DNA of 63,164 nucleotides, filler included, from Chrysochromulina tobinii (Eukaryota), in the NCBI GenBank assembly GCA_001275005.1. It is 6 parts of 6 records of this genome, joined end to end, with 100 filler letters (N's around TTAATTAATTAA, not from the genome) between each part and the next. Parts side by side here need not be neighbours in the genome. Positions count along the whole stretch, not along the records: positions 39,466 to 56,262 come from JWZX01001437.1; 5 more parts are not named here. One strand, 5' to 3'. The notes beneath the pieces are model-generated. The model had not been told where the DNA came from, did no database searches, and worked only from the letters and a program-made list of their open reading frames with translations. Positions 6,845 through 52,900 of this stretch are shown here, piece by piece. Both the position numbers and the translations under genes were made by a program. How positions within the stretch are numbered: position 1 is the first letter of the stretch; each line of letters opens with the position of its first letter.

Positions 6845-8439
6845 CGAGCTGGCGCTCGCGGTCGCCGAGCGCCCAGAACTCGTCCGTGATCCGCTCCGCC
6901 CATTGCTTGTGAAGGTGAAACGGCTTGAAGCTGTGACCGAGGTCTGCAAACTTGAGAGCCACGGGCAGCAGCAGAGGCACGCCCACCAGCGCCTGCGCCT
7001 GGAAGGGAGAGGTCCACTCCGCACGCTCGCTCAACTCTAGAGGAACCCTCTCGGCTCGACCGCCTCGTTGTTCGCCGCCAGTTGAGCGGCCGAAGCACTG
7101 TAGCTTGCGGAGTGCTTCTGCAGAGACTACAGCGGCGTGGCCGTGCTGAGCAGCCAGAGTGCGAAGGGTCGAGATGATGTCGAAGTGCATCTTCAGGTCG
7201 GTCGCGAGGACCATATCGACAATGAGCTTTCGGCAGAGTTCCTCATCGTCAGTTGACATTGCGCCGAAGAGGTCGAACGCCGGCGTCGCCGCGAACAGTG
7301 TGATGTCGAGTGCAGGTGATGACGCTCGAGGATAGCATCCGCATGCATCAGCGCGCGCTCCGTCCCCGCCCGCACCTCATGTCGGTTGTTTGTACCGGGG
7401 TGGTTGAAGTCGTGGACGAACGCCCCAACGAGGGCGGCGAGCAGTTCCAGCTTCGTGAGGCGCGCCGTCAGGCCAAAGTTGACGATGAAGTAGTGCACGC
7501 CTAGCGCAACATCCGCGGCGTGCACTGCATTGTGGTACTCTTGGCCGCCGTAGCACGCCTCGAGGGCACACAGGAAGCGATGTAACACCTCCCGGTTAAC
7601 GTGGCAAGGCTCGTGCAGCTTGTGCCATTCGAAGAGCGCCTCGCCAACGAGGAGGAGGGCGTGTCCGCCAGAGGCCTTCTGCAGCGCGAGTGTGTCATAG
7701 TCCCACGTGTCCAGGCACGCCAGTGCCTCCGCCCTTGCACTGTCGCTGATCATGAGAGGCTCCTTAAACAGCTCACCGGTGAGGGCCATCGTCATGGCTT
7801 CCGGCAGCACCCACAATGACGTTGACCTCGTATATTCCTTCGAATGTGAACGTGGTCGAGTGCTCCCCGACGAGAGGGAGCCACTGAGAACACTACCAAC
7901 ACTGCCCGCGATGCGCGGGTCGCTTCTCTTCCTGAACGAAGAAGAAGTCCCGACGAGAATCTCTTGCAGCCAGGACGCAACTCTCTCGGCAGGCGCCTGT
8001 TCTTCGCCATGACGAGAGCCTTCTAAGAATATCGAAGTCAGCGACAGCCTTTTAAGAAAATCGAAGGACGACGACCGCTGCAGGGCAGCCCGGGCCGCCA
8101 CAATCTTGTCGAGAGCGTGCACCCAAAGTTTGATCTGGCAAGCATCGTCAGGGACGCAGAACTCGCCGATGGGCCTCAACAGATCAGAATCCGTCTGGTC
8201 CTCTCCGTTGATCTGGATGCGCGTGCACACTACCTGGATGTTGAGGTCTTCCATCATCTTCTGTAGGAAGGGGGTAAGGATCCCTGAGCGATTGGCTGCT
8301 TGAGCGCCCCGCCGGACACTTGGCAGCCAATCGCAAGATCCTGGTCACCAGCGATTGTAAACTCGAAGCTCTGCGCGCCCCTCGAGGAGACTGAACCATC
8401 CTTGCGGCGCGACAAAGCGTTGCTGATCGCGTTGAGCAT
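6845..8439 (-). pseudogene. Class I cyclic-nucleotide phosphodiesterase, frameshifted copy, 3'-truncated by contig end
   Basis: YHNAVHAADV, HDFNHPG, LATD and KFADLGH are split across ORFs 7193-8257 and 6845-7259. One T is missing near 7303 relative to the paralog (ACATCAC vs ACATTCAC). Could be a sequencing error. Confidence 0.8.
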
Positions 8440-9283: not shown

Positions 9284-11296
9284 TTAAGCAGTCGGGAAGC
9301 TCGAGCGTCTTGTGTGAGCTGTTTGCCCTCGCCGCCGCCACTGCGGCACAGGTGCAGGCGCCTTGGGCGCCGTGCCAGGCAGGTTCGCATCCCCTGGGGG
9401 GCATACGGAAAGTACGGGTTCCCGACGGATTGCATGCTCCATTAAGGGTTCCCGGCGGATTGCATGCTCCATTAAGAGAGGGCTCATCGCATCGATGACC
9501 GAAGATGGCGGACAAGCTGACGAGCCTTCCCCACCACCACCATCGACCCCGCCACCGTCGCCTCTCCCTCCGTCACCGCCGCCTTTTCCACCGCCGCCTT
9601 TTCCACCACCTCCTTCCCCCCCACCGGTGCCACCTTCTGCTCCACCCCCGTCGCCTCCGCCATCTCCTCCTTCATACCCGCCGCCCCCTTTTCCACCGCC
9701 GCCATCTCCGCCTCCACCTTCGCCGACGCCATCATCCCCACCACCACCATCTCCTCCGCTCGTTGCGCGTCCTCCGTCGGCTTCGCGTTGCGAGAGCTCC
9801 TCCCATGCCGTCAGGTGCGCTTGCACGCGTAGCCAAGGCAGCATGGTTGGGTCGATGAGGTCCGCCACGATCGAGTAGAATGGCACGCAGATGAACTTGA
9901 AGAAGCCAACCTGCGACTCGGGCACGTCGCAGTCCGTGTGCCGGTCGCACAGCGGCGAGAGGGCGATGCCGAGCTGGCGCTCGCGGTCGCCGAGCGCCCA
10001 GAACTCGTCCGTGATCCGCTCCGCCCATTGCTTGTGAAGGTGAAACGGCTTGAAGCTATGACCGAGGTCTGCAAACTTGAGAGCCACAGCAAGCAGCAGA
10101 GGCACCCCCACCAGAGCTTGCGCCTGGAAGGGAGAGGTCCACTCCGCAGAGACTGCAGCAGCGTGGCCGTGCTGAGCAGCCAGAGTGCGAAGGGTCGAGA
10201 TGATGTCGACGTGCCTCTTCAGGTCGGTCGCGAGGACCATATCGACAATGAGCTTTCGGCAGAGTTCCCGATCGTCAGCTGGCATTGCGCCGAAGAGGTC
10301 GAACGCCGGCGTCGCGAGCAGTGTGAATGTCGAGTGCAGGTGGTGACGCTCGAGGATAGCATCCGTATGCGTCAGCGCGCGCTCCGTCCCCGCCCGCACC
10401 TCATGGTTGTTGTTTGTACCGGGGTGGTTGAAGTCGTGGACGAACGCCCCAACGAGGGCGGCGAGCAGTTCCAGCTTCGTGAGGCGCGCCGTCAGGCCAA
10501 AGTTGACGATGAAGTAGTGCACGCCTAGCGCAACATCCGCGGCGTGCACTGCATTGTGGTACTCTTGGCCGCCGTAGCACGCCTCGAGGGCACGCAGGAA
10601 GCGATGTAACACCATCCGGTCAACGTGGCAAGGCTCGTGCAGCTTGTGCCATTCGAAGAGCGCCTCGCCAACGAGGAGGAGGGCGTGTCCGCCAGAGGCC
10701 TCCTGCAGCGCGAGCGTGTCATAGTCCCACCTGCCCAAGCAAGCCAGTGCCTCCGCCCGTGCACTGTCGCTGATCGTGAGAGGCTTCTTGAACAGTTCAC
10801 CGGTGAGGGCCATCGCCATGGCTTCCGGCAAGACCCACAATGACAGTGGACTCATGATGTATTCCTTCGAATGTGAACGTGGTCGAGTGCTCCCCCACGT
10901 GAGGGAGCCACTGCCAACACTGCCCACGATGCTTGGGGCGCTTCTCTTCCCGACGAGGGTCTCGACGAGTGTCTCGCGCAGCCAGAAGGCAACTCTCTCG
11001 TCAGGCGCCTGTTCGTCGCCTTGACGAGAGCCTTCAATGAAAATCGAAGCGAACGAGAGGTGGTAATTGTCCTCGCTCGATGCGTGAGGGTCGACCCAAA
11101 GCGCCATTGCTGCAGCTAGCATCAGCTCGAGTTCGAGCTTCAAAGCGGAGCTCGCACCCTCCCGCTGCATCTCATACTGTTCCTGTCGGAGTAACTCGGT
11201 AAAGATCATCGCTGCGCGTGCCGTCGCTTCGCGTGCCGTGCCTCGCCCGATGATCCTCGGAGCACGGTTCAAGGAGGAGACGACGAATGAATCCAT
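9284..11296 (-). CDS. Class I 3',5'-cyclic-nucleotide phosphodiesterase (PDEase_I) with Gly-rich tail
   Basis: Complete motif set in one frame: YHN..HAADV, HD..HPG, E.HH, LATD, K.ADL, SQVGF. Confidence 0.92.
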   Translation of the reverse strand: MDSFVVSSLNRAPRIIGRGTAREATARAAMIFTELLRQEQYEMQREGASSALKLELELMLAAAMALWVDPHASSEDNYHLSFASIFIEGSRQGDEQAPDERVAFWLRETLVETLVGKRSAPSIVGSVGSGSLTWGSTRPRSHSKEYIMSPLSLWVLPEAMAMALTGELFKKPLTISDSARAEALACLGRWDYDTLALQEASGGHALLLVGEALFEWHKLHEPCHVDRMVLHRFLRALEACYGGQEYHNAVHAADVALGVHYFIVNFGLTARLTKLELLAALVGAFVHDFNHPGTNNNHEVRAGTERALTHTDAILERHHLHSTFTLLATPAFDLFGAMPADDRELCRKLIVDMVLATDLKRHVDIISTLRTLAAQHGHAAAVSAEWTSPFQAQALVGVPLLLAVALKFADLGHSFKPFHLHKQWAERITDEFWALGDRERQLGIALSPLCDRHTDCDVPESQVGFFKFICVPFYSIVADLIDPTMLPWLRVQAHLTAWEELSQREADGGRATSGGDGGGGDDGVGEGGGGDGGGGKGGGGYEGGDGGGDGGGAEGGTGGGEGGGGKGGGGKGGGDGGRGDGGGVDGGGGEGSSACPPSSVIDAMSPLLMEHAIRREPLMEHAIRREPVLSVCPPGDANLPGTAPKAPAPVPQWRRRGQTAHTRRSSFPTA

Positions 11297-32543: not shown

Positions 32544-34640
32544 ATGGGCGCCGGCGGCTCCGCTGCTCGACAGCGACGGGATTCTGTCGTAGAGTTCCGA
32601 GATAGTGCCATCAAGCGCCCGTCGTTCAATCGATCGAAAGCCCAGGACGCAGATGCTCAACGCCATATTCGAGCTGGAGTAAAGCACGTTTTCAATACTG
32701 CCGAAGCAGATGACAAGTTGAACGCCGCCTTCTACCGAGTCGACAAGGACAAAAGCGGCTCCATCGATGTGCACGAGCTGCACTCGGCACTCGGGACTCT
32801 CGGTATTCAGCCCGATTCCTTCCAACATACCCTGCAAGTGATGCGCAAATTCAACAAGGATAAATCCGGTGGCCTGGAACTCAAAGAGTTCCGCTTGCTC
32901 GCGAGCTGGATGAAGGAGGAGAGGATTGCAGCCGAGGGTATCTTCAGAAGGTTTGACGAGAACGGTGACGAACGGATCGACGTCATGGAGCTCTGCGCCT
33001 GTCTGGCGCATCTTGAGCTGGCGGACAATCTTGATCAGGCAAAGGCGGTTATGGAAACCTTTAGCGTGGAGAAGAAGGCAACCGGCACGCTGTCCTTCGA
33101 CGAGTTTAACAAGGCTGTCGACCGATGCCGAGCCTTAAAGAGCCACCGCGAAACCTTTCGGTCGTACGACGCGAATCGCGACGGCACCATCGATGTAGCT
33201 GAGCTACTCACCATGCTCCTCGACCTTGGATTGGCCAACTCGGAAGCCCAGGCACGCGACGTGTTGCAGATCTTCGACATCGACGGCAATCGATCCCTCG
33301 ACGTCGCCGAGTTCATCAAATTGGCCGATTCACTTGCGATCTTCCACGAATTTGACAGGAACCAGGATGGCAAGCTCGACGTTCACGACTTGCACTACCT
33401 GCTGCAAAAACTCAAAATTGCGTCCGACTTTGAAACGACGAAGACCATACTGAAGCGGTGGGACAAGAATGGCAACGGCTGCCTGCAGTTCAATGAGTAT
33501 CTAATGTTGAACAAGGAGATCCAAAAGCTGACAAAGTATCTGCACATGCCCTTCTGCAACGGTACATGCGGCTGCCAGTGTAATCCTGCCAATGAGCGGC
33601 CTCAGGCTCAGGCTGCGGCACCTGCTCCGAGCGCTCCTGGTACGCCTCGGCAGTTGAACTCAAAAGCGCCCGCGCCATCAACGTCGGCACCTCAATCAAA
33701 AGCGTCCGCGCCAGGAGCGTCGGCACCTAATCGACCCTCTGGCCCGCCAGCCAAGCTGCCTGCACTGACTGCAACAGCGCCACCACCTTTGGCCACCACC
33801 ATCAATGCTGATGAGGTCTTTCGCAAATTCGACCGGGACGGCGACTCGTCCATCGACGTCTACGAGCTGCACGGTGCGCTCGAAGGTCTGGGCTTGCCAC
33901 CCTACAACTTCTTTCACGCCATCGAGACCATGCGAAGATACGACGACGATGGCGACGGGAAGCTCCAGCTCGACGGATTCCGCCAGCTTGCCGCTGAAGT
34001 ACTGCGTAAGCTGCAGGAGACGGACTCAAGCTTTGTGCAATGCGATGCCGACCGTGACGGCCGTATCAGCACGCGGGAGCTCGTCGGCTCGCTGGTAGCG
34101 TTAAACCTGCAGCAAAGTGCCTTCTTTGCGCCTGAGGTTCTCAGGCAGTTTAGCTGTGATGGCACGCTTCAGCTGCCAGAATACCGCAAGGTGGTCCACC
34201 GGTGCCGTGCATTAGACAAGCACGTCACGACCTTCCGCTTCTACGACAAGGACGGAAGCGGCGGCATCGATGCGGGCGAACTTCACGCGGCCCTGAACGA
34301 GCTCGGGCTTCTGACATCACTGGACCAGGCACGTGAGGTGCTGCTGCGCTTTGACTCGGATGAGAATGGGGTGCTCGACATGCGCGAGTTTTCAAGTCTG
34401 GTGGATACCATCTCTACTTTCCGTCAATTCGACAGGAATGGGGATGGCACCATGGACGTCCAGGAGCTGCACTACGCGCTGATCACGCTTCGAGTGCCGA
34501 TGGAAACCTTTCAGCAGACGAAGGAGATGCACCGCTACTATGACAAGGAAGGAAAGGGCGCGCTGTCTGTCAGCCAGTACCTCGAGCTCATATACGACTT
34601 GCAAAGAAATAGCAGACCTCCAGCGAATCAGGATGCGTGA
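32544..34640 (+). CDS. Multi-EF-hand Ca2+-binding protein (2 x 8 EF-hands), putative N-myristoylation
   Basis: Starts MGAGGS. Has 16 DxDxxGxI/L-type loops (two degenerate) in two halves, separated by CNGTCGCQC and a Pro/Ala linker. Confidence 0.92.
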   Translation: MGAGGSAARQRRDSVVEFRDSAIKRPSFNRSKAQDADAQRHIRAGVKHVFNTAEADDKLNAAFYRVDKDKSGSIDVHELHSALGTLGIQPDSFQHTLQVMRKFNKDKSGGLELKEFRLLASWMKEERIAAEGIFRRFDENGDERIDVMELCACLAHLELADNLDQAKAVMETFSVEKKATGTLSFDEFNKAVDRCRALKSHRETFRSYDANRDGTIDVAELLTMLLDLGLANSEAQARDVLQIFDIDGNRSLDVAEFIKLADSLAIFHEFDRNQDGKLDVHDLHYLLQKLKIASDFETTKTILKRWDKNGNGCLQFNEYLMLNKEIQKLTKYLHMPFCNGTCGCQCNPANERPQAQAAAPAPSAPGTPRQLNSKAPAPSTSAPQSKASAPGASAPNRPSGPPAKLPALTATAPPPLATTINADEVFRKFDRDGDSSIDVYELHGALEGLGLPPYNFFHAIETMRRYDDDGDGKLQLDGFRQLAAEVLRKLQETDSSFVQCDADRDGRISTRELVGSLVALNLQQSAFFAPEVLRQFSCDGTLQLPEYRKVVHRCRALDKHVTTFRFYDKDGSGGIDAGELHAALNELGLLTSLDQAREVLLRFDSDENGVLDMREFSSLVDTISTFRQFDRNGDGTMDVQELHYALITLRVPMETFQQTKEMHRYYDKEGKGALSVSQYLELIYDLQRNSRPPANQDA

Positions 34641-37965: not shown

Positions 37966-39365
37966 ATGGGCGCCGGCGGCTCCGCTGCTCGACAACGACG
38001 GGGTTCTGTCGTAGAGTTCCGAGATCGTGCCACCAAGCGCCCATTCAATCGATCGAAAGCCCAGGACGCAGATGCTCAACGCCATATTCAAGCTGGAGTA
38101 AAGCACGTTTTCAATACTGCCGAAGCAGATGACAATACTGCCGCCTTCTACCGAATCGACAAGGACAAAAGCGGCTCCATCGACGTGCACGAGCTGCACT
38201 CGGCACTCGGGACTCTCGGTATTCAGCCCGACTCCTTCCAACATACCCTGCAAGTGATGCGCAAATTCGACAAGGATAAATCCGGTGGCCTGGACCTCAA
38301 CGAGTTCCGCTTGCTCGCGAGCTGGATGAAGGAGGAGAGGATTGCAGCCGAGGGTATCTTCAGAAGGTTTGATAAGAAAGAGGTGACGAACGGATTGACG
38401 TCATGGAGCTCTGCGCCTGTCTGGTGCATCTTGAGCTGGCGGACAATCTTGATCAGGCAAAGGCGGTTATGGAAACCTTTAGCGTGGAGAAGAAGGCAAC
38501 CGGCACGCTGTCCTTCGACGAGTTTAACAAGGCTGTCGACCGATGCCGTGCCTTAAAGAGCCACCGCGAAACCTTTCAGTCGTACGACGCGAATCGCGAT
38601 GGCACCATCGACGTAGCTGAGCTACTCACCATGCTCCTCGACCTTGGTTTGGCCAACACGGAGGCCCAGGCACGCGACGTGTTGCAGATCTTCGACATCG
38701 ACGGCGATCGATCCCTCGACATTGCCGAGTTCATCAAATTGGCCGATTCACTTGCGATCTTCCACGAATTTGACAGGAACCAGGATGGCAAGCTCGGCGT
38801 TCACGATTTGCACTACCTGCTGCAAAAACTCAAGATTGCGTCCGACTTTGAAATGACGAAGACCATACTGAAGCGGTGGGGCAAGAATGGCAACGGCTGC
38901 CTGCAGTTCAACGAGTATCTCATGTTGAACAAGGAGATCCAGGAGCTAACAAAGTATCTGCACATGCCCTTCTGCAACGGTACATGCGGCTGCCAGTGTA
39001 ATCCTGCCAATGAGCGGCCTCAGGCTCAGGCTGCGGCACCAGCTCCGAGCGCTCCTGGTACACCTCGGCAGTTGAACTCAAAAGCGCCCGCGCCATCACC
39101 GCTGGCACCTCAATCAAAAGCGTCCGCGCCAGGTGCAGCGTCGGCACCTAATCGACCCTCTGGCCCGCCAGCCAAGCTGCCTGCACTGACTGCAACAGCG
39201 CCACCACCTTTGGCCACCACCATCAATGCTGATGAGGTCTTTCGCAAATTCGACCGGGACGGCGACTCGTCCATCGACGTCTACGAGCTGCACGGTGCGC
39301 TCGAAGGTCTGGGCTTGCCACCCTACAACTTCTTTCACGCCATCGAGACCATGCGAAGATACGAC
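37966..39365 (+). pseudogene. Frameshifted duplicate of the EF-hand gene, truncated by contig end
   Basis: Near-identical to 32544 onward. Net +2 insertion near 38375; D to G changes in EF loops (KLGVHD, WGKNG). Confidence 0.85.
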
Positions 39366-39465: not shown

Positions 39466-39736
39466 TACATGCCCATCACTTGGGGAGGTACGCTGAACCC
39501 TCGGGTGCGTGCGTGTATAGGTATGGTCCGGTCACCAAAAGCAAACTTTTCTACCCTGACAAGTTTGCTCGAGGCGGACGCAACGTCCTGCGATCTCCTG
39601 GAATTATAAACGACACCAAACGGCAAGAGGGGGGGAGGGGAGTGTTTTGAGATTGAACAGGAGTTTCTGAAAGCTGAGGCAGTGCGCTGAGCTCAGCCAC
39701 AGCAACCAACAGAGCCGCTGCGTCAACCAGCCGCAC

Positions 39737-39942
39737 TATCACGGGGCATGTGTGTGCTCAGTGCGCCAAATCGTCCTATACGGGAGTACTTGTTAGTTTA
39801 GTCAGATTTAGCCAGTAACCACTGTGGGGAATTCCCAGTGGGAAATTAGTGGGTACGTAGACACTTGTGTTTTGTGGTTGGGTGGAGCCATGGTGTCTCT
39901 CATTCTCTTTCTCGCCTCGTTTGGCCCTGCGTCCACGAGATA
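39737..39942 (+). repeat. 5' LTR (TATC...GATA)
   Basis: No differences seen versus the 3' LTR by eye. Confidence 0.95.
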
Positions 39943-42900
39943 TGGCTTCCCTTCCGGGAATTCTTCGGCGGCGCCTGTTGACGTTTTCGCCACTATCACC
40001 CCCGTCTCCAGTGAAGATGTGGTTTTCCCCCCGCCCCACTGTGCGGATCTGTGGAATTTGTCGACCCCTAATGCGGAGGAGACCCAGTCTTCTTTTTCGC
40101 TCGGCTTTGTTGACCCCCAATGCGGCATGTTTGCCTCGCGAGGGTTTCCGCCGCACCATGCGATGCCGGACTGTCGCTGCCGTCTCGACGGCGTGTCGGG
40201 CTGGCTTCCTCGTCAGCGCCACTTCGCCGCTGGGCCACATTCGCCCGCTGAAGCCGCCGTGGTACTTACGTCTTCGAGCTGCGGCCACGGCCTTGCCGCC
40301 ACGCTCCACTGGTTCGAGCGTGCAGGCCAGCCCGTCCAAGATCCCAGCTTGGCGGCATGCCGGCGCGTCTTCCTCGAGATCACCGTGTACCTGGCTATGC
40401 ACCCACACCGCGTATATGATGTGGGCGTCATGTTTATGCTTCTGGCCTGGTTTATGATCCAGCCCCGTGCATGGGCCCGGTTGGTGCTCCTCATTTCGCT
40501 TGGTACCCTGAGTGCTGCCACCCACCTCTTCAACCTCGTGCTCCAGTCTTGTTTGCACGATGGGCGTGAGCGTGGGAGCGCCCGTACTGGTCGAGGACGA
40601 TGGGTTGATCACAACCACGCCCTGGGCATGCAGGGTGCTTCGGGCGCATGGGCCATCTGGCGCATGGCCGTCGTCACCACCTTCCTCCCGTTGGCCTTAC
40701 TCCTCCTAGCCCCACTTGTGGCTGCTAACTATGTCATCGCCACTCTAATCAGGCTGGCCCGCTTGTCGCTTGCCTGGTTACCCGCCTTGTCACTAGCCGG
40801 TGTACTCGTCCTCCTCATGGTTGCCTACTATGTTGCCACCACGCTCGCCGCGTTGATTGTTGACATGGTACTGTTCACATTCTTGGTCACTCAGATCGTT
40901 GGCTTCATCGCCCTGGCCAGTGTTGACTCGGTCACGACGCCCCTGATCTGGTTTCTGATCGAATGCGTCACTCTCGCTGGTACCATCACGATCGCCACCA
41001 CCCGTCGCTTGGCCACCACCCTGGCGTGCCTGGCCAGCGCTTTCGACCACTGGAATGCCCTTCGTGACCCAGCCATCGCCGAGCTCGCGGGCGCCCTGCA
41101 TCGCGGGTGGGTCGGTAAGAAGCGCCGCCCCACCCGTGATAATCGCCACGACATTCGGCGGGCGCTGCGTGATCTCACGGCTCCCGCTCGGCTCGACAAA
41201 CTGGTGCAAACCCATCGCTACGTGATGATGGTATTCGGCGATGGTGATCCTTCGGTGCCTCACCGTCGCCAGGTCGCTTCCGTGTACGCGCGCGTCGCCC
41301 TCATCGTGCTGACGATCATTACCGCCCGCGCCTGTCGTTTTGGCTCGCGGGCGATCAAGCGCACCGAGGGCTTCACGCTCAACGTCGGGCTAGCCATCAC
41401 GGTTAGGCTCCTTCGCACTCGCGACTGCCTGGTTGCCCACGCCTGCTTTATGTCTGGACGCTCGGGCATAGCCCGGCGCGCCCTCGACTCCCTGCTCGTC
41501 GCTACCTACCTGCGTTTTCGCTCCCCAATGGCGGTGATGATGCCACGTATGAGACCCTTATGGATCTTGGCCATGCTCCCCCTCGTGAGCTCCGCCGGTG
41601 ACGAGAATAAGCGCGTGCCGAGCTTCAGTGGTGAGCGCATCGATTTCACGGCGTGGTTCATGCTCTTCTCGGCCTACGTCGCCTATAAGCTCGTCTCCGC
41701 CGCGCCCCTCATCGCTGGCACCAGGCCGAGGCCTCCTGCTGCGCCATCGCCCACGATGGGACGGGTGGCGCCGGAGCCTCCCGCTCCTCCTGCGCCCATC
41801 CTCGCGACCGATGGTAGCACCACTAACCAGACTGAGATTGACGCCGCCAACGCCGCCCGTCTAGCCTGGATGAACACCGCCCAGGTCGTCCTTAACGCCG
41901 CGGAGATCAAGGAAGCGAACGACGCACGTGAGAAGTGGGCGAACGACAACACCCAGCTCTACGGTCTCCTCGTCCAGGCCATGCCGGCGTGGTTGGTCAC
42001 GTCCCTCTACAACTCGCACCTCAATGACGGCGTCGCTGCGATCGAGTACTTGCGTAAGGCGTTCGATGCCAACTCGGGTGACGGCGGAGACCATGCCGCC
42101 CACTTAGCGAGATTGCAGTCCCGCACGATCGACGCACGCAGCGATATCTCGGAGGCTGATCTCCGCCGTCAATTCGACATGATGATGTCGGAGTCGGCCG
42201 CTATCCAGCGCACAGGCAACTCCCCACCGTCCGAGGCCACGATGATTGCGTTCTATGATAACGCACTGCCCATTGCCTATACCACCATGCGCCAGCACGC
42301 ACGACGGGCTAGACATACGACGTTGCTCGCGCACCATATGGACATCATGAGCCAGGTGCGCGCTGAGGCCAACTCTCGTGCGCCTGCTCCTAACGCCTTC
42401 GCTGCCTCCATCGCGCCGGCCGGCGCGACGCCACTTAAGCCGGCTACCAACGCTGACGCTGACAAAACTTGCCTTCGCTGCGGCCGCCTTGGCCACACTC
42501 GTCGAACCTGCAGACAGGCAAAGGCGCCCTGTACGCACTGCGGTGCCGATCATCTCCCGGACTTCTGCCCTAAGGGCACGGGTGGGCGCCGCCGTGAGCT
42601 CTCTGATGTGCTACGTGGCGTTCTCGATCGTGACGTGCAGCGCGGCTCAGGCCCCGCCGCGAAGCATGGGCGGAAGCCCCCGACTTATGCGGCTGCGGCC
42701 GCCCAGGCCTCAGCCCCGGCCCCGGCCTCGGCTTCCCCGCCTACACCGTCACCGCCAGCTGCCGCGCCGTCGATTGCGCCGACCGCGCCAGCCGTGCCAT
42801 GGCAACAGCCCACGCCAACTGCCCACGCTGCCGCTGCTCAGGCCGCCTCTATCCAGGCTGATGCGCAGTCCGCCGCCAACGCATACGCCGCCGCCCTTCG

Positions 42901-45900
42901 CGCGTTCGGCTACGGTCTGATGGCTCATCTCGACTTTCACGCCTACTTTGGCCTCTCCGCTGCCTGGCCGCGCCGTTCCCTGCCGGCCGCCCCACCATTC
43001 TGCAGCTCGGAGGACGCCGCCGTCGACTCTATGGCATCCTTGATGATCGTAAACTCCGTCGACAAACTGTACCGTGTGACTGATGCATCCCCGAAGCTCG
43101 AGATTGAGACTGCTGATGGCCTCGTCCCCGTCAAGGCCATCGGCGTTGCCCTCGCGTACTTGCGCGTTGGCCGTGCCTGGGAGTGCTACGAGATACCCGA
43201 TGTCATGGTGCTCGAGAACTGCACCTTCACGCTCTATTCAACTCGGGTCATGTACGCGCTCTTCGGCTTCAAGCACGCGTTCGAGTCCGGCGTCATATCT
43301 GTCCCTGGTGCTCACGACATTGCTATCTATGACACCGGCGCGGCCTACGTGACTCCGATCGCATTTGTCCCGCACGGCTCACCTCGGCCGGAGGTGGTAC
43401 ATCGCGCCACCGACCGCGCTCTCGATGCGTTCCGCGCCGCTTGTGCCGGGCGCCCCGCCGCACGCCTCGCCGAACGCAGTGCCGGCACTTCCCAGGCTGT
43501 CCTGCATCAGCGCCTCGGCTTCCCATACCACGAGCAGTGGAAGCGCGTGCCTGCTTCCACCATCGACCATGGTTTGCCTCCCAACGCTCAGGCCACGCCT
43601 GATCTGCCCACGCGCGATGCTGTCTCGCGAGGTCGTGCACGCGCCCTACCATTCCTGCGCAAGCCATTGGAAGACGTGCGGCAGCCTCCACCCGCGGCGG
43701 TGATTTATATGGACTTCGCCGGTCCCCTCCTGGCCAGCATCTTCCATCGATACACCTGCTACGTCTGCTGCGTCGACGCCGGCTCGGGCTATGGGCGTCT
43801 TTACCCTGCCCACCATATGACGGCCCTTGTTGCCGCTGGCGCTCTTGAGTCGTACTCGGCTGAGCTTGCCTCGCTCATGGGCTTTCACGGCGGTTTCAAG
43901 CCCCTCGTTGTTCGCTCCGACCAAGGCAGCGCTTTTGTCTCCTTTTATTTCCGCGAGTTTCTCTCCGCCCGCCAGATTCATCAATCGCTGGCATGCACTT
44001 ACACGCCGCAACAGAACTCACATGCCGAGCGTTTCTTCGGGGTTGTGTTCGCAACCGCTCGCGTCCTGCTGGCTGCCGCCAATCTACCGCCGATTTTCCA
44101 TCCTTTCGCTCTCCAGACGGCCGCGTGGATTCACAACCGCCTCCCGCGACCCTCCCGCGGTAATGATTCGCCGTACTATACCCTCACCCGTTCGCTGCCT
44201 TCACTGGCGATGCTCTATTGTTTTGGATGCCTGGCTGCCGTCGTCATCCCCGTTCCCCGCCGCGAGGGCGATCGTCACTTTGCCGATCGTGGCGAGCACG
44301 CCATCTACCTCGGTCCTTCTGAGGTCAGCCCTGGCCACGTGGTTTACTTGCTTTCTTCTCGTCGCATCACCACTGTGGCCAAAATCCATCCGTGGGAGGA
44401 TCAGTTCCCTGGCATTGCCGGCGAGCGGTACTCGTGGTTCACTGATGATACCCCGCCGCCGCCGTCAGAGGGGCCCGCCGTCCCGACCGCCGATGTACCG
44501 ACCGCCGCCCGTGACGGCCCCACGAGTCACGGCCCTACGGCCATCCCTGACGTTCCCGACGAGGCACCTACGCCTACCTCTGCCACCACCCCAACTCCGC
44601 ATCCGCCTCCGCTTCCACCTGCTGTATCGGTACCTACGCCCCCGGCAGTTGGGTCCGGAGGGGCTGTAGCGCCAGGAGGGGCGCCTGCCACGTCAGCAGT
44701 TGGGCCCGGAGGGGTCACGCCAGGAGGGGCGCCTGCCACGTCAGGAGGGGCCACGTCAGGAGGGGCTGCCCCACAGCGATCAGCCCGACCCAGAGGTGAG
44801 CTCAAGAAACTCGAGACCAAGACGACCGTGAGCCCACCGGATGCCGCCGGAGCTACTCCTCGCCGCGCAGGTTCTCGAGTTGGATCGTCTGTGCGTTATG
44901 GCCAGATCGCCATGCATTCTGCGATGAGCCTCTTCGCTCTTACCGCCGTGGCCGCCGCCAACCTGCGCGCCCCGATTTCACTTGGTTTCGCCTTCACTTC
45001 CACCATCTCGGCAGTGGACGAGGCCTTCGGCGGCGAACCCCTCGATAGCCAGCCCGACTCTTGGCTTGTCGATGCAGCCGCTCTCGCTGCTACGGCGGCT
45101 ACCCTGACCATCACTGCCGATCTGGGCGAGCTGGACGTCCCTAAGTCTTTTCGTCAGGCTATGCGCAGCCCGCAGCGTGACTATTGGCGTGAGGCCATCG
45201 CCAAGGAGCTGGCTGGACTGCTCGCCCTTGAGACGTGGGAGATGGTACCTGCTAGCTCGATGCCTCCTGGTGCCAACCTGATGCATTGTCACTACGTGTT
45301 CGCAGTCAAGCGTAAGGCGGATGGATCCATCGAGAAGTTCAAGGCGAGGCTCGTCGCCGACGGTAACACCCAGAAGTACGGCGTTGACTTTGACCGGGTG
45401 TTCGCAACTGTGGTCAAGACATCCACAATTCGCCTCGTTCTTCTGCTTGCCGCGGCTCGGGATTATAATCTCTCCTCCATTGATATTCGGCAGGCCTACT
45501 TACAGAGTCTCCTTGACCCCAACGTGCCACTTTACATGCGCCCGCCCCCGGACGTGTTCCCTTTCGACCAGCATGGGAACCCGTTGGTGTGTAAGTTGCG
45601 GCGATCACTTTACGGCCTCAAGCAGGCTGGCCGGGAATGGGCCGCTCTCTTCTCCTCCTTCCTCATTTCGTGGGGCATGACGCGATCGACCATCGATCCC
45701 TGCCTCTACGTTTTCCGGGCCGCAGAGTCCATCCTCTGGGTCTGTGTCTACGTTGATGACGCCCTCATCGCTGACAACGACCCCGAGCTTCGCGCCCGCT
45801 TTGTCACCGACCTATCCGCACGCTTCCCTACTGAGGACAAGGGAGAGCTCAAATGGATTCTGAGTGTAGCGATTGCGCGGGATCGCAAGGCTCGCACCCT

Positions 45901-46750
45901 CTCGATGTCGCAGGAGCTATACGTCGCCGACTTGATCACCAAGTTCGGCTCCTTCCTCGACGCGTCTGTCACTCGCACTTTTGACACGCCCATGGAGGAG
46001 GGATCGGTGCTCTCGGCCTCGGATCAACCTCAGATCGGATCCGAGGCTCACGCGGCTATGGCGGCTTCCCGCGACGTTTATATGTCGCTCGTTGGTGGGT
46101 ACTTGTGGCTCGCGAACATGACTCACTTCCATCTGGCTTACCCGGCCGGCCAGTTGGCACGTTTCCTCACCAACCCGGGGTTGCCGCACTACCGCGCCGC
46201 TCTGCGTTTGCTCGCCTACCTCCAATCTGTGGGGTCCCGGCCGCTTGTGTTCGCCCCCAACAGTGTGCGAGGCTTGGACACCTACGTCGACTCGAGTTGG
46301 GCGACTCGCTTCTCGGTGAGCGGCTGCCTGATCTTCTATCACGGGTGCTTGTTCCACTGGTTCTCGAAGATGCAAAAGTCTGTCTCCTTAAGTTCCGCTG
46401 AGGCCGAGTATTTTGGTGCGATGATGGCGGCCAGGGATTTGATTTTCGTGCGTGATCTGCTCATCGAGCTCGCCATCCCGCTTGAGGGCCCCAGTGTGAT
46501 GTGGTCCGATTCCAAGTCTGCTGTCGACATGTCTCGTGATCCGGTGGCGTTCAAAATGACCAAGCATATCTTGCGTGCGGCGGAGTTCCTTCGCGATCTC
46601 GTAGCTCGTCTGGTCATTGAAGTACGACACTTACCGGGGCGTGTGATGATTGCCGACCTTCTGACTAAGGCTGTGGCCCGGGTCGTATACCACGAGCTTC
46701 TTCGTCTCTTTGACGTCTACGCCGCCACAGGTGTGGTGTGCCCCGATTAA
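39890..46750 (+). CDS. Copia Gag-Pol polyprotein with ~570-aa hydrophobic N-terminal extension
   Basis: CLRCGRLGHTRRTC zinc knuckle; integrase MDFAGP / RSDQGSAF / PQQNSHAER; RT KARLVA, LYGLKQA, YVDD; RNase H DSSW, SSAEAEY, ADLLTK. The first ATG (GCCATGG) lies inside the 5' LTR. Confidence 0.93.
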   Translation: MVSLILFLASFGPASTRYGFPSGNSSAAPVDVFATITPVSSEDVVFPPPHCADLWNLSTPNAEETQSSFSLGFVDPQCGMFASRGFPPHHAMPDCRCRLDGVSGWLPRQRHFAAGPHSPAEAAVVLTSSSCGHGLAATLHWFERAGQPVQDPSLAACRRVFLEITVYLAMHPHRVYDVGVMFMLLAWFMIQPRAWARLVLLISLGTLSAATHLFNLVLQSCLHDGRERGSARTGRGRWVDHNHALGMQGASGAWAIWRMAVVTTFLPLALLLLAPLVAANYVIATLIRLARLSLAWLPALSLAGVLVLLMVAYYVATTLAALIVDMVLFTFLVTQIVGFIALASVDSVTTPLIWFLIECVTLAGTITIATTRRLATTLACLASAFDHWNALRDPAIAELAGALHRGWVGKKRRPTRDNRHDIRRALRDLTAPARLDKLVQTHRYVMMVFGDGDPSVPHRRQVASVYARVALIVLTIITARACRFGSRAIKRTEGFTLNVGLAITVRLLRTRDCLVAHACFMSGRSGIARRALDSLLVATYLRFRSPMAVMMPRMRPLWILAMLPLVSSAGDENKRVPSFSGERIDFTAWFMLFSAYVAYKLVSAAPLIAGTRPRPPAAPSPTMGRVAPEPPAPPAPILATDGSTTNQTEIDAANAARLAWMNTAQVVLNAAEIKEANDAREKWANDNTQLYGLLVQAMPAWLVTSLYNSHLNDGVAAIEYLRKAFDANSGDGGDHAAHLARLQSRTIDARSDISEADLRRQFDMMMSESAAIQRTGNSPPSEATMIAFYDNALPIAYTTMRQHARRARHTTLLAHHMDIMSQVRAEANSRAPAPNAFAASIAPAGATPLKPATNADADKTCLRCGRLGHTRRTCRQAKAPCTHCGADHLPDFCPKGTGGRRRELSDVLRGVLDRDVQRGSGPAAKHGRKPPTYAAAAAQASAPAPASASPPTPSPPAAAPSIAPTAPAVPWQQPTPTAHAAAAQAASIQADAQSAANAYAAALRAFGYGLMAHLDFHAYFGLSAAWPRRSLPAAPPFCSSEDAAVDSMASLMIVNSVDKLYRVTDASPKLEIETADGLVPVKAIGVALAYLRVGRAWECYEIPDVMVLENCTFTLYSTRVMYALFGFKHAFESGVISVPGAHDIAIYDTGAAYVTPIAFVPHGSPRPEVVHRATDRALDAFRAACAGRPAARLAERSAGTSQAVLHQRLGFPYHEQWKRVPASTIDHGLPPNAQATPDLPTRDAVSRGRARALPFLRKPLEDVRQPPPAAVIYMDFAGPLLASIFHRYTCYVCCVDAGSGYGRLYPAHHMTALVAAGALESYSAELASLMGFHGGFKPLVVRSDQGSAFVSFYFREFLSARQIHQSLACTYTPQQNSHAERFFGVVFATARVLLAAANLPPIFHPFALQTAAWIHNRLPRPSRGNDSPYYTLTRSLPSLAMLYCFGCLAAVVIPVPRREGDRHFADRGEHAIYLGPSEVSPGHVVYLLSSRRITTVAKIHPWEDQFPGIAGERYSWFTDDTPPPPSEGPAVPTADVPTAARDGPTSHGPTAIPDVPDEAPTPTSATTPTPHPPPLPPAVSVPTPPAVGSGGAVAPGGAPATSAVGPGGVTPGGAPATSGGATSGGAAPQRSARPRGELKKLETKTTVSPPDAAGATPRRAGSRVGSSVRYGQIAMHSAMSLFALTAVAAANLRAPISLGFAFTSTISAVDEAFGGEPLDSQPDSWLVDAAALAATAATLTITADLGELDVPKSFRQAMRSPQRDYWREAIAKELAGLLALETWEMVPASSMPPGANLMHCHYVFAVKRKADGSIEKFKARLVADGNTQKYGVDFDRVFATVVKTSTIRLVLLLAAARDYNLSSIDIRQAYLQSLLDPNVPLYMRPPPDVFPFDQHGNPLVCKLRRSLYGLKQAGREWAALFSSFLISWGMTRSTIDPCLYVFRAAESILWVCVYVDDALIADNDPELRARFVTDLSARFPTEDKGELKWILSVAIARDRKARTLSMSQELYVADLITKFGSFLDASVTRTFDTPMEEGSVLSASDQPQIGSEAHAAMAASRDVYMSLVGGYLWLANMTHFHLAYPAGQLARFLTNPGLPHYRAALRLLAYLQSVGSRPLVFAPNSVRGLDTYVDSSWATRFSVSGCLIFYHGCLFHWFSKMQKSVSLSSAEAEYFGAMMAARDLIFVRDLLIELAIPLEGPSVMWSDSKSAVDMSRDPVAFKMTKHILRAAEFLRDLVARLVIEVRHLPGRVMIADLLTKAVARVVYHELLRLFDVYAATGVVCPD
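39943..39960 (+). promoter_or_regulatory. Primer-binding site, 18 nt
   Basis: TGGCTTCCCTTCCGGGAA directly follows the LTR. Its complement UUCCCGG-AAGGGAA-G-CCA has the form of a tRNA 3' end. Confidence 0.8.
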
Positions 46751-46790: not shown

Positions 46791-46996
46791 TATCACGGGG
46801 CATGTGTGTGCTCAGTGCGCCAAATCGTCCTATACGGGAGTACTTGTTAGTTTAGTCAGATTTAGCCAGTAACCACTGTGGGGAATTCCCAGTGGGAAAT
46901 TAGTGGGTACGTAGACACTTGTGTTTTGTGGTTGGGTGGAGCCATGGTGTCTCTCATTCTCTTTCTCGCCTCGTTTGGCCCTGCGTCCACGAGATA
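46791..46996 (+). repeat. 3' LTR, preceded by short purine tract GAGGGG
   Basis: Direct repeat of 39737-39942. Confidence 0.95.
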
Positions 46997-49900
46997 CGCA
47001 CGAGCGTGCTCCCACATGGCGATGGCGGCGCTCACGTGCACGTTGAGCGAGCGCAGCAGCCCGCGCTGTGGGATCTCGACACACTGATCGACTTCAGCCA
47101 GCAGCGATGCGGGCACGCCCGTTCCCTCCGCGCCCAGCAGCAGCACCGTCTTCTCGAGCGCACGCGGTGATCTCCCACGCGACCGGCGAGTGGCTGCGGC
47201 CTGTGTGAGCAGCTCATTCGTAAAGGTGAGGCGGCGGGCGGCCCCGGCGGGGAGGCTCCTGACGAGATTGAGCGCGTCATCCTTTTTCATGCCGGCCATA
47301 CTCTGGCCATTGACTGCAAGCAACGTCATGCCTATGATGATGCCCTTTTGCTGTGCCAGCGTGCCATCCACCACGTCGTTCACCACGATGGCACCGCTTG
47401 CGTGATCGCCTAGCCCGAGCCCAATGTGCTTCCCAGGCTCGAAGTCGTACTCATACTGAGAGGCGAGCTCGTACGGATGAGTGGTATTCACACGGATGGT
47501 ATTCACACCTCGCTCGTACGGATGAGTGGTCGACGCCTGCTCAGCGCCGTCGTGAGCACCCAGCATCGAGTAGTACTCTTGCAGAGGAACGGATCCCGCC
47601 GCCTGCTCCAGCGCCACGATGCGCCATCCTGCCGCTCGGCGGGCCCGCAAGTACCTGGACAGCTCCGCCGGCTTGACCTCTTCCATCGGCAGCCAGCGCT
47701 CGGCGCCCAAGCTCAACCCTTTGAAAGCCTCGTGGCTGGCAAGTCGCTTGTCGGGGAGCACGAGCGCTGCCGCGCCGAAGATCTCGGCGCTCCGGCAGAT
47801 GCCGCCGAGATTGGTTGGCTTGTCGAGGAGCGAGGCGACTACGATGAGCTCGTGCGCGCGCCGCTTGGACTGCACCGCCGTGGTGCGCAGGTCGGCGAGC
47901 TGTGCATGCATGGGGGCGAAGGAGTCGGCGTGCGAGACAGCCCCCTCGTCTTCAAGCGCGCCGCTCGCCACTGCTTCTGCTGCCGCAGTCGCATCCTCCT
48001 CAGATTCGGCGCCTGATTGCCTCCGATTGCGCCTGGTTGCCTCCTCATCCGCCTCCTCGTCCGCGGCCGCCGCTGCGCTGAGCACATCAAACACAAGAGG
48101 CTCGACATTCCACCAGCCATGACCGCCGAGCGCCGTCTTGCGCTGTGCCACTTGGTGAGTGGCGCGGCTGGTGGCGGTGGCCGCAGGGCTGGCTGCGGCG
48201 GGGGCGAGGAGGGGCTCGATGCCAGCTAGAGCTGACGAAACTGGAGCTGACGAAACGCTGCTGGCGGTTACTGGAGCTGACGAAACGCTGCTGGTGGTTG
48301 TGCCACGCAAGGCAGCGAGCTCTCCCCGTAGGTACTCCGTCAGGGCCAGCCGGCGCTCTGACGCTTCCTTCTGAAGCGCGGCGGTCTCCTCCTCCTTACT
48401 CGCGTGCACCAGCGCCGACATCTGGCGCCCCAAACGCTCTTGGGCGGACACGGGGGCAGACTCGCCATCTCCCGCGCCCGCCGCCAAGGCCGCGCCTCGC
48501 GCGTCGTACAAGGCTGCCGAGGCGGACCGCGAGTGCGCCGGCAGCCAGAGCAGCGGGTCTATGGCGGCAGTGGCGGCGACAATCTGCGGCTGCGTGGCGA
48601 AGAAGGTACCGAGGGTCGCTAGAAGCGCCGGTGGTGCCAGAGCGCCGTCGCGAGCGCCGTCGCCATCCGTGGCAGACGGAGCGACGGCGGGGGTGCCGAC
48701 GTCCGCGCGCGCTGCAGCAGCCGGGGTGCGCCTCATGGACGCAGCCGCATCGAGATCGTCCGAAATCGTGGCGTCGGGGGTCAGAGCAGCCAGGCGAGAG
48801 AGCACCCCGATCGACAGCAGCCGCGCGGTATGGAATGTGCACGTTGCCCAGCCGAGAAGGTGCGGCAGCACTGTGTTCATGGCAGCCTGGCGCGAGTCCG
48901 GCGGCAGCGCGACGAGGGCCGCGCCAACGATCAGCACGGCGGAGGCAGCGGCGTCGCGGGATAGGGTAGGATCAGCCACGAAGTTGCAAAGGACCGTTGG
49001 GGCCGTCCGCGCGTCGCTCAGCACGAGCGCCACTGCAAAGCTCTCCATGTACTGCCTGACACGAGGTAACGGCTTCTCGGACAGCAAGCGCCACACGCAG
49101 CTGGCCGCCGCCTGCGCCGGTGCCCCAAGCTGTGGAAGCCACGGGGCTAGTAAGCTGAGTGCTTGCCAGGAGCGTAAGCAGCGACGTGCTCCCTGCGTCT
49201 GTGGTAGATACCACTTGGGGAAGCTTGCATCGGGTGAGGCGACGGAGTCGAGGAGCAAAGCGGTGACGGCGTTGAGGAGGGCGAGTGCGCCGTCGTTGCT
49301 CGCGCCTGCGGCCAACGACGCCTCCTCTCGCAGCGGCAGCTCCAAAAGCAGCCGTAGTGCGAGCGCCCTCACGCGATGCGCCGCGGCACGGCGCTGGGCG
49401 TCCGCACCGCCGGCCATGAGGGCGTCCAGCAACGCCTGGATACCCTCATCCTCCGCAGAGGCGCACCCATCGACCACAGGAGCGGCGGCGGCGCTGGTGG
49501 TAGAGGCGCGACTGCACGTGGCGGCAGAAGACTGCGAGTCTGCAGGCACGGCAAGGGCCAGATCGGCACGGCTCACGCTCATGACTGCCCGTGTGGACAG
49601 CCGCGGCGCAAGGTCGTCATCCAACGTGGAGAGCAGCGCGGTGCTGCCCACCGGCAAGGCCGCATCCCCATGCAGCAAGAGCTCGTGTATGCGAGAGGCC
49701 CATGGGAGGCAAGCGCGGGGCTGCTCCAGAACGGCGTCGCACAGACGGGAGGCGGCGAGCTGTGCGGCAAACGGACGGGCAGCGCCGAGGCCGTGTAGGA
49801 AGTCGAAAGCTCCGAAGCTCTCAGCTTGAAGGCCAGTGCAGTGCAGCACGGGCACGCTGAGGAGGGCGTTGGCAACGGCTGCACAGAGGCTCGGCTGCAG

Positions 49901-52900
49901 AGCGGTCGATCGCACCAGACGAAGACTCTCCAAGCAGGCGCGGTGGAGAGCGCGGACGTGCGAGACCGTTGACGAGACCGACGAGACCGCGCCGTCCGTA
50001 GCGGCCGCGCCATCTGATTGCCTCTGATTGCCTCTGATTTCCTCTGAGTGCGAGACCACGCCGTCCGTAGCGGCCGCACCATCAACGACAGAGTGGCGGA
50101 GGGCGATGCGGATCAATGGCCCAGCACAGCGGAGAAGCGCATGCAGCGCCTCGGCATCGCCCGACGACTGCTTCAGAGCGGCCGCGCAGGATGCCAGCCA
50201 CGTCTGATGCCGTCGATCCACAAGCTCACTGTCGCGTACCACAGCCGGCGCGATGCCTTCGCGCACGCGTATAGGTGGCGGGGGCGATGATCGGCCGCTG
50301 ACGGTCGCCACTGACGGTGCATCGCCTGCAGCGTCCAGCAGGGCGGCTAGCGCAGCCCATTGCGCCACCTCCGAGCGGTATCGCAGTCGCAAGTCGACCC
50401 CGTTGCCATCGCCGTCCATGCTTGCGAAGCGTCCCGCGCCCTCCGCGCAAGCCGCCAGCATTGTCTCTCGCGCCGACTGCATGGGCTTAGTAAGGAGTGG
50501 ATGCACGGCGACGATGCCTGGTGCGCCGTCGTGAGCAAGTTCCAGCGCCCTCGCACCATACATCCCGGCGCGCACCACGGCGGAGAGAGCGTCAGCGGCC
50601 ATCAGTCGCACGCGCGGCGCTTGGGGTCCGGCCGCGCTCGCAAGTTCGGCACTCAGGCCTTGGAGCAGCTGCTCGCCCACAAACGTGACGATCGAGCGAA
50701 CCTCCGGCACGGCCGCTGTGCATGCAGCCAGGGCGCCGGAGCAGTGGACCACTCGAGCACAGAGCCAGTCAGTCTGATCAGGTGCACCGACCAGGGATGA
50801 GTCGGAACGGCCTGTGCGTGCTTCGGAAAGGGCGTTCTCGACGACGCCGCAGCAACCTTCAGCACAGCCAGAGAGCATATTGATCACCACCGAGCGCCAA
50901 GCTGGCTCGTCCGCTGCGGCAGCGCCGTCAATGAGCGCATGCAGCAGCACTAGAAGCCGCGGCGCGTGCAGCGGGTGCAGATAGGCTCGCGTGTGCACGT
51001 TCACCAGCTGCGCGCACAGTGGTCCCAGTGCAAGGGCCACACGCTGCGCGGTCGGACACAAGTCGCACGCCGCGCGGAGCGTCTCTGCCTCCTCTGCACT
51101 GTCGCTGAGATCGGAGGCGGCAGGCACGAACGGCTTCGGCTGAGCGGTGATAGGAGATGTGATGGCTGCTGTGATGGCCGCCGTGATGGCCCCGCCCTGG
51201 CTCGCCCCTTTTCGGCGATTGGTATAGCGCTCCAAGTATTCTTGGACCGCTTCAGCAACCTCCGCCTCCAGCCACGCTCCGCCATCTGCACGTCTCGGGC
51301 GCTCAAGCCACTGGCGCACTCGCTCAACGGTCCGTTGCGGCAGTCGAGATGCCGCGGGCACGCTGCGTACGAACGCCATAATAGGCAACAGCCCCAGAGA
51401 TGACGCGTCACCGAGCGCGAGCAGCGCCTTCAGACCGACACGCCACAGGCGCGCCTGCGCCACCCGCCCGTGCGAGCGGCCCGCCTGCTGCATCACGTCA
51501 CGCAGCGCGTAAAAGCCCCCCTGGCTCAGGACGCCGGGAGCTTCGGGCGTCGAGGCGAGGGCTGTGAGCAGGTGCTCGCACGCATGCACCTTAGGCGAGT
51601 CTTGGCAGGCGCGTAGCAGTGACTCCACCCACGTGCCCGCAGCCTCGACGCCGGCGCGTCGCGCCAAGTAGGACACGTACAGAGGCAGCGCGTCTCGGAC
51701 GGCGGCCGCCAAGGGTGAGAGAGGTCCGGTCGAGTCGCCCCTCCCAGCACCACGATAGTTGCCGTCACCAGCGTCGTCGCCGCTATTCCCGCCGCCGCCG
51801 ACGCCGCCGCCGCCGCCGCCGCTGAGGTCCACCCGCCACGGCGCATGCGAGTGCAGGAGCAGCGGCAGCAAGTGCTCGGCCATGAAGCGCGCGGGCGGCA
51901 CCACGGCGTGCGCCTCTGCAGCTGCAGAGCCAGTGGTTTCGGAGGGCTCTGGAGGTTCGGGCGCCTCGAGGGCAGCCGCGACATGCTCCAGGAGGGTGAG
52001 AGCCGCCCAGTAGCGCACGGCGACATTAGCATGGCCAAAGGCCCTGCGTAGCAGCAGCTCGACCCACGGCCACGAGGGAGGCGGCTCCAGGGCCTCGCGC
52101 GAAGATGAGGGCGAGGTCACTGCTGCATCGCTGTCCGCTGAGGCATTTGTCCAAGTACCGGTAGAAGTACCGGCCGGAGGTGCGACATCGCCTAACCACC
52201 ACGAAGGCTGTGTCGGCCACACAGGCTGGATGAGATGGACGTCGTACGCGGCCTCGAGAGAGCCATAGACGGCCAGGAAGGTCTCCCACGCCGCCACGTC
52301 CGCAGCCTGCGCGTGGGCGGTGCTGACGATCAAGGCCGCCGCCTTTGCCTCCTGGGAGGTTCGATTCGCACCGTCGCGGCGGAGGGCATGCAAGAGGAGC
52401 GCGTTCGGAGTGGGTGGCGCACTCGCCATCGGCGCCGCTTCGAGAGCGGCGCGCCACGCGCCACGCAGCTGCTCATGCAGGGCCGCGGCGGTGGTGAAAC
52501 AATGGAGACGAACGGGTTCTGATTCTGACGCGCACCCCCGCGCCAGCCACCCCCACACCGCGACTGCGCTCGCCTCTACATCCAGATCGGAGCTGCACAG
52601 CAGCGAGAGTGCCGCCGCCCGCGCCGCACGGAGCGGCGACAATGAGAGCTGGGCTCCCGCAGCAGCGAGCGCAGCGCTGGCTTCCGCCGTGGGTGATAGC
52701 CGGTGCAGTCGCAGCGCAAGGCTTGCTGCCGCCACCGCCGTCATACTGCTCGCGCCGCTCTTGGCGCCTTGGCACGCGATCTCATCTGTGGTGGTGGGCT
52801 GCAGCGCACTCATCGCCGCTGTCCACAGTCCAGGGATCGCATCTGCAGTGACGAGCTTCGCAATAGCTTCGCAAGTCATGTCGAGGACCACAGCTGATAC

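Follow-up and report, generated by a model that had tools for sequence, protein, structure and literature searches.

A Copia retrotransposon of Chrysochromulina tobinii with a predicted membrane glycoprotein encoded in frame ahead of Gag

Why should a Copia retrotransposon open its reading frame hundreds of codons ahead of Gag, and what becomes of Gag if the intervening segment is a membrane protein? Both questions are raised by an element on one contig (about 39467–56260) of the Chrysochromulina tobinii DNA analysed here, a window of 63,164 nt in which contigs are joined by N linkers. An initial annotation had described a membrane module fused in frame upstream of Gag and likened its logic to that of MLV glyco-Gag.

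Structure and setting of the element

The element is a Copia by structure, young and intact (Table 1). Its two LTRs are identical and are flanked by CGCAC on both sides, from which we conclude that the insertion is recent. A single ORF of 2,286 aa runs from the ATG at 39890 to the stop at 46748–46750, with 569 aa (hereafter, the leader) preceding Gag, and there is no separate ORF between pol and the 3' LTR, which starts only 40 bases past the stop. As the initial annotation had it, the frame opens inside the 5' LTR, at an ATG in strong context (GGAGCCATGG) with one further ATG upstream within the LTR, and reads on through the PBS, which it crosses at 39943. Profile searches placed integrase (rve, residues 1293–1373, below cut-off) before reverse transcriptase (RVT_2, residues 1781–2020), and in this order, its RVT_2 match, single ORF and capsid fold the element is like Drosophila Copia (PDB 8vvw, 8s41). 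With Ty1/copia elements (Pseudoviridae) it shares the LTRs, PBS, 5-bp target duplication, PR-IN-RT-RH order and CCHC knuckle, but the layout departs from theirs in the about 250–1,100 residues added before Gag, in TA...TA LTR termini and in a D-S/T-M/Q protease motif, the D-S/T-G by which Ty1/copia proteases are recognized being absent. In the eight ordinary copias listed, Gag begins within a few residues of Met1.

Table 1. Features of the Copia element, with positions in the window and residues (aa) counted from the start codon in the 5' LTR
Feature	Position	Strand	Remarks
Left target-site duplication, CGCAC	39732–39736	+	
5' LTR, 206 bp, termini TATC...GATA	39737–39942	+	Contains the start codon at base 154
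Predicted N-terminal signal peptide (about aa 1–16)	39890–39937	+	LTR-encoded; cut site by eye
Domain predicted to be lumenal/extracellular (aa 17–~177)	39938–40420	+	Sequons N24 and N56; no confident fold
Primer-binding site, in-frame part of Y-G-F-P-S-G-N	39943–39963	+	Motif in the same frame in 51/70 relatives
Hydrophobic zone, aa 178–370	40421–40999	+	Several predicted membrane helices; basic loop aa 222–240
Arg-rich helical region, aa 381–545	41030–41524	+	Cytosolic side predicted
Internal signal-peptide-like segment, then acidic linker	41546–41596	+	Predicted cut between A569 and G570
Gag capsid domains, aa 574–830	41609–42379	+	AlphaFold and Copia capsid match
CCHC zinc knuckle, nucleocapsid, at aa 861	42470–42511	+	
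Protease motif V-D-S-M-A-S, aa 1045	43022–43039	+	Met replaces the usual Gly
Integrase core	43766–44008	+	PF00665, E 8e-6, under curated cut-off
Reverse transcriptase, then presumed RNase H, up to the stop	45230–46750	+	PF07727, E 1.6e-37; RNase H by position only
3' LTR, same as 5' LTR	46791–46996	+	Short purine run GAGGGG immediately before
Right target-site duplication, CGCAC	46997–47001	+	

The inverted LTR termini, TATC...GATA instead of TG...CA, recur in part among related metagenomic loci, four of which (L002, L005, L006 and L007) also start with TATCAC. No tRNA matching the PBS was found in the window. A methyltransferase ORF of TARBP1/SpoU type (46862–53329, minus strand) carries the element at its very 3' end, just past the SpoU domain, which is split by a PDZ-like stretch; this ORF now extends 45 codons into the 3' LTR before reaching a stop. 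Most of the sequencing runs that contain the element come from lakes and rivers as metagenomes, and two genes on other contigs of the window share 90%-identity clusters with proteins of Chrysochromulina parva and C. tobinii; a freshwater Chrysochromulina is accordingly the most probable host. In run X15, contigs span the whole element including the leader at a depth of 50–126, compared with 0–14 for most of the flanking gene. Because the DNA-type run X1 gives the same pattern (12–42 against 0–3 in the flank), the X15 coverage was not taken as expression and may reflect multi-copy DNA; runs X18 and X20 contain only scraps of the element.

Coding status of the leader and selection upon it

The 569 leader codons contain no stop in their own frame and 8–34 in the other five. 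High GC had been expected to weaken any argument from this openness, an objection that did not hold up: in 2,000 dinucleotide shuffles no stop-free frame arose among the three scored, the average being 10.6 stops per frame, so the 62% GC of the leader does not explain it. An overlapping antisense gene is ruled out by the 8–34 stops of the minus frames. In its fit to pol-like synonymous codon usage, moreover, the leader scored 0.164, close to Gag (0.172), as against 0.020 ± 0.022 for shuffled sequence and at most 0.022 for other frames, and T is enriched at its second codon position (0.34 against 0.18 and 0.22).

A metagenome scan returned 11 loci, one of them (L001) identical to the window element. 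On the question of stops or frameshifts in relatives, which the initial annotation had raised against its own reading, the outcome was divided, since the leader is open and fused to Gag in L002, L004, L005 and L007 but has a 5-nt deletion in L011. Six of the ten non-self loci are broken or rearranged, by deletions in L006, L008 and L011 and by inversions in L003, L009 and L010. Estimates of dN/dS for seven pairs under two transition weightings, a check proposed at the outset, gave 0.38–0.79 for the leader and 0.07–0.24 for Gag, with the upper bound for the leader below 1 in 13 of 14 estimates; the hydrophobic zone, compared with the most distant copy only, gave a value of about 1 (0.77–1.04). 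All leader indels are multiples of three nucleotides relative to L005 (7/7) and L006 (5/5), as are 12 of 20 relative to L004 (70% identity), whose frame stays open across a long insertion. When neutral mutation was simulated to 0.2–0.26 substitutions per site, only 1–2 leaders per 1,000 were still open. That 1.7 kb without a stop would reflect selection, as first suggested, is thus borne out by dN/dS, in-frame indels and codon usage, which point to a coding region under purifying selection that is weak but real, and the leader is very probably translated.

The long insertion in L004 comprises ~110 in-frame codons, rich in Pro, Ser and Ala, within the basic region. At synonymous sites L002 and the window element diverge by 0.34 in Gag, as against 0.04 in the leader and 0.07 in pol, a pattern that may reflect recombination between subfamilies or a chimeric assembly; L002 shares the right flank of the window element, with a different left flank, and because it may be chimeric we did not count it as an independent insertion.

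Distribution and layout of the leader among relatives

A search with the pol region yielded 201 matches, 120 of them listed, with lengths of 1,257–4,001 aa, a range wide enough to include leaderless forms (about 1,700 aa). In 125 sequences examined, the Gag N-terminus was located in 87, of which 70 have a Met-started leader longer than 250 aa; the other 17 are partial sequences or have shorter leaders, and several of these come from families with long ones. In a FastTree RT tree of 73 of 76 rows (P0124, P0129 and P0145 left out; small outgroup), all leader-bearing rows fell in one 60-row clade with support of 100, apart from 13 ordinary copias. A C. tobinii fragment, KOO35621.1, clusters with relative P0036. 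No relative turned up in two scans of viral contigs. The lineage may extend across the haptophytes. P0125 and P0126, relatives of 3,335 and 3,358 aa, have a SET domain in the same ORF between Gag and integrase (aa 1856–1975 and 1573–1691, respectively; PF00856, above cut-off), with several full-length members in the P0126 cluster, and may be Copia elements that encode a histone methyltransferase. The protease motif is D-S/T-M or D-S/T-Q (rarely D-T-A) rather than D-S/T-G in all but one of 53 representatives, or 52 of 53, the Asp and Ser/Thr being kept; four of six ordinary copias checked have D-S-G. Despite its Gly-less motif, and a protease activity that is putative, the window element has transposed recently, as its identical LTRs attest.

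The leaders themselves fall into many mutually non-aligning groups. No motif shared by 28 non-aligning leaders was found (score 13.1, against 12.4–12.8 for shuffled sequences), and profile-profile comparison of 7 of 16 families linked only 1 of 21 family pairs, at 59% probability. What recurs is the layout, in which we called signals and helices by our own hydropathy rules. A signal-like peptide missed in the initial annotation occupies the extreme N-terminus, which is hydrophobic in 51 of the 70 Met-started relatives. A Y/H/D-G-F-type motif, encoded by the LTR/PBS junction, comes next, likewise in 51 of 70. The shared frame of this junction, which in the window element is readable in any frame, suggests a common origin. 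The aromatic residue that follows the first signal peptide resembles a plastid-targeting motif, a reading given no weight because the junction encodes this residue.

The N-domain before the first helix is enriched in N-x-S/T sites, of which 27 representatives have 67 where 31.7 are expected, and 19 mutually non-aligning leaders have 38 where 18.6 are expected, counts that none of 300 shuffles reached. Control motifs stayed at background, both those reversed or with D, H or Q (0.7–1.2) and those shifted, there was no clear enrichment past the first helix (16 against 12.9), and Gag was depleted (17 against 27.9). In the N-domain of the window element there are just two sequons, one of them adjoining the PBS. 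R-x-K/R-R occurs before the first helix in 15 of 27 representatives, compared with 4.2 after shuffling, and is absent from the window element. One to several hydrophobic stretches follow the N-domain, except in 2 of 28 leaders with none above threshold. Those of the window element (Kyte–Doolittle 19-mers of at least 1.6) lie at 40481–40543, 40646–40999 and 41270–41335; the two described initially were both recovered, the first being shorter than the 40420–40540 then given, and the leader does look like a membrane module. Pfam gave no match in the leaders of 29 proteins or in the leader of the window element, Atlas gave TM scores below 0.3 for the leader with no fusogen fold or family found, and the AlphaFold model of the leader, built from four sequences, had a pLDDT of 35. 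By sequence statistics only, an Env-type set of signal peptide, glycosylated ectodomain and membrane anchor is present. The leader is probably an ER glycoprotein, and it appears to resemble viral surface proteins in its fast evolution, glycosylation and basic clusters, the last absent in the window element.

At the other end of the leader, MRPLWILAMLPLVSSA lies immediately N-terminal to GDENKRVPSFSGE, and the residues after that model as Copia capsid. This segment, correctly flagged early on as resembling a signal peptide, opens with a basic stretch and continues with a hydrophobic core of about ten residues, then small residues, then an acidic linker. A rule built on this pattern was passed before Gag by 44 of 53 representatives, compared with 1.9% of other leader and 3.0% of pol positions. 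In a second set, drawn from a 50%-identity library and overlapping the first in part, 45 of 53 passed and 16 more had too little sequence. Positive charge is greater on the N-side of the segment than on its C-side in 50 of 53 representatives, from which we place the start of Gag in the lumen.

Could the leader nevertheless be functionless, a former 5' UTR kept open by the LTR start and hydrophobic through a T-rich strand? Its very fast divergence, with one family pair linked and no motif above shuffles, and the low pLDDT of its model would fit, but T is concentrated at codon position 2, dN/dS is below 1, the glycosylation excess is sequon-specific and signal-like peptides stand at both fixed ends. 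Moreover, in-frame deletion would be easy, yet 70 of the 87 relatives with a located Gag start retain more than 250 aa. The pre-Gag signal rule and the sequon excess already largely refute this explanation, which we regard as very improbable.

Predicted release of Gag and possible fate of the glycoprotein

AlphaFold gave a Gag model of pLDDT 89.7 from a 58-row alignment, and Drosophila Copia capsid 8vvw_A was its top match in both fold searches (Foldseek E 0.4; VIA Z 10.9, rmsd 6.5, 181 aligned). Model residues 28–284 align to 8vvw_A 4–186 and the predicted cut follows model residue 23, which puts A569/G570 five residues before the position aligned to Copia capsid residue 4. Cleavage by signal peptidase before Gag is likely and, if the second signal peptide is indeed cleaved, Gag would be freed from the membrane module, not anchored by it. 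No conserved stop-transfer segment was found after Gag. The first Gag helix, more hydrophobic than in ordinary copias (mean, 1.18), was set aside as a stop-transfer anchor, as it lies inside the capsid-aligned stretch and reaches 1.6 in only 4 of 53 representatives. Conserved sequons in pol number 122 against 89 expected, mostly NMT, NLT and NLS, and lumenal passage might glycosylate them.

The likeness to MLV glyco-Gag lies in an in-frame N-terminal extension with a signal sequence that directs the product to the ER. As described in PMC3265304, however, glyco-Gag (gPr80) is an alternative form with an 88-codon extension started at an upstream CUG, optional and dispensable in culture, and ordinary Gag is made from its own AUG. 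The extension here is six times longer, predicted to be multi-pass and seemingly the sole route to Gag: the ORF begins at a strong AUG, 36 AUGs lie between this start and Gag, and at each position from −50 to 0 the share of representatives with Met is 11% or less, so that a leaderless Gag is not easily made. The glyco-Gag logic first proposed is therefore not supported: the leader does not look like an alternative form of that type, and the defining two-start arrangement fails. A looser version, in which the leader-fused, secreted form is an accessory (a decoy capsid, a counter-defence or a block to superinfection) and functional cytosolic Gag-Pol is made from a second RNA or by internal initiation, would remove the topology problem considered below and has the MLV precedent (PMC3265304). 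Of the 53 representatives, 39 do have some Met within −45 to +8, and in the second set 16 proteins were called with at most 25 residues before Gag. Yet 14 of 53 have no Met in that interval and none is conserved, the 36 intervening AUGs exclude leaky scanning, and a GT..AG joint was not seen in RNA contigs, a weak observation limited to contigs. Several short-leader calls, moreover, sit in long-leader families (for example P0042/P0040 and P0102/P0105), and we hold this version to be quite unlikely.

We lean, with limited assurance, towards one polyprotein from which signal peptidase cuts off a ~570-residue, ER-inserted membrane glycoprotein, Gag-Pol then beginning at or in the ER. The single ORF starts from the LTR AUG and is kept open under weak purifying selection. 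Its N-terminal signal peptide would bring the ribosome and genomic RNA to the ER, where the first 150–350 residues would be glycosylated in the lumen. An odd number of helices would put the chain back in the cytosol at the Arg-rich region (14.8% Arg over aa 381–569), and the second signal peptide would re-enter the translocon and be cut between A569 and G570, giving a Gag N-terminus in register with that of ordinary Copia Gag. Because capsids must meet RNA in the cytosol, and fully translocated Gag-Pol could not package it, Gag-Pol would have to return or sometimes escape translocation. In this least certain step, Gag and Gag-Pol might regain the cytosol by retrotranslocation, by analogy with what is proposed for Ty1 Gag, or else arise there from chains that skip the second signal, and assembly would proceed on ER-bound RNA next to an equal amount of freed glycoprotein. 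More speculatively, the latter might serve as an accessory of Env type, linking particles to membranes of the secretory pathway; a role in cell exit or entry is doubtful.

We know of no large glycoprotein ahead of Gag in murine IAP, a retroviral element whose Gag, like that predicted here, is found at the ER. For Ty1, entry of Gag into the ER lumen by SRP has been reported and its return proposed, with assembly sites nucleated at the ER (PMC3945221). In that account neither a signal sequence nor a membrane segment is recognisable in Ty1 Gag, whereas the present element has two signal-like peptides and a membrane module. Retrotranslocation would be unnecessary if Gag stayed cytosolic, tethered by a leader whose second segment is uncut or flipped, with capsids assembling on the ER or some other secretory membrane and budding into the lumen. 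The glycosylated N-domain would then clothe them as an envelope, much as if an intracisternal particle came with its own Env. IAP Gag, which is taken to the ER membrane by SRP and remains untranslocated in vitro (cited in PMC3945221), would be a precedent, and the fast-evolving, glycosylation-enriched N-domain, the R-x-K/R-R excess before the first helix and a Gly-less protease motif suggesting unusual processing are all compatible with tethering. The pre-Gag segment, with its basic N-side, short core, small residues at −3/−1 and acidic C-side, argues instead for an N-cytosol/C-lumen orientation and cleavage, the R-x-K/R-R excess may amount to basic clusters (with none in the window element), and no fusogen fold or family was found by Pfam, Atlas or the leader model. 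We therefore consider tethered Gag unlikely.

If the signal peptidase model is true, a whole Copia lineage hard-wires the ER passage of its Gag by explicit signal peptides. That passage was reported for Ty1 in the absence of any known signal, and the lineage makes it possible to test why and how a retrotransposon capsid passes through the ER. It is somewhat unlikely that these are also infectious enveloped elements, a haptophyte Copia lineage with a single Env-Gag-Pol polyprotein and the envelope glycoprotein first. Signal peptidase would then free this glycoprotein as in flavivirus-type polyproteins, and particles would exit by the secretory route and gain entry to further cells in lake water and seawater. 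In a single-celled aquatic host such cell-to-cell spread would be spread between individuals. Plant env-like ORFs have for decades raised the suspicion that some Copia elements are infectious, and this would be a third, independent design.

Plant Sireviruses carry their env-like ORF 3' of pol, and Ogre elements have one extra ORF as a separate ORF before gag. The Sirevirus env-like gene is described as poorly conserved, sharing only membrane segments and of function not established (PMC3414828), and differs as a separate ORF from a leader fused ahead of Gag; functions are likewise not established for the extra ORFs of Ogre (PMC6431247). Membrane proteins are also described for Ty3/gypsy elements, as the sORF2 of the Drosophila MDG1 group, for movement of LTR elements between cells (10.1101/2025.03.14.642691), and in mite ENV-GAG-POL elements, where env precedes gag (PMC13524379), but these are separate ORFs with FAST-like or F/gB-type folds, none of which was detected in the leader. 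A Tisochrysis survey lists six Copia families in a main text that does not use the words gag or transmembrane (PMC5963040), and a full-text literature search retrieved no Copia described with a leader before Gag, though Repbase, GyDB, subscription journals and supplements may contain one.

Elsewhere in the window, two further minus-strand ORFs stood out by eye, one of 1,298 aa (142–4038), transposase-like with G/R/D-rich repeats, and one of 1,276 aa cut by a contig end (56307–60137), reverse-transcriptase-like with a YTDD motif and possibly from a DIRS/Ngaro-type retroelement. Local duplications of ~97% identity affect an EF-hand-rich gene (32544–34640 and 38140–39365) and a phosphodiesterase-like gene (7193–8257 and 9284–11296), both also identified by eye.
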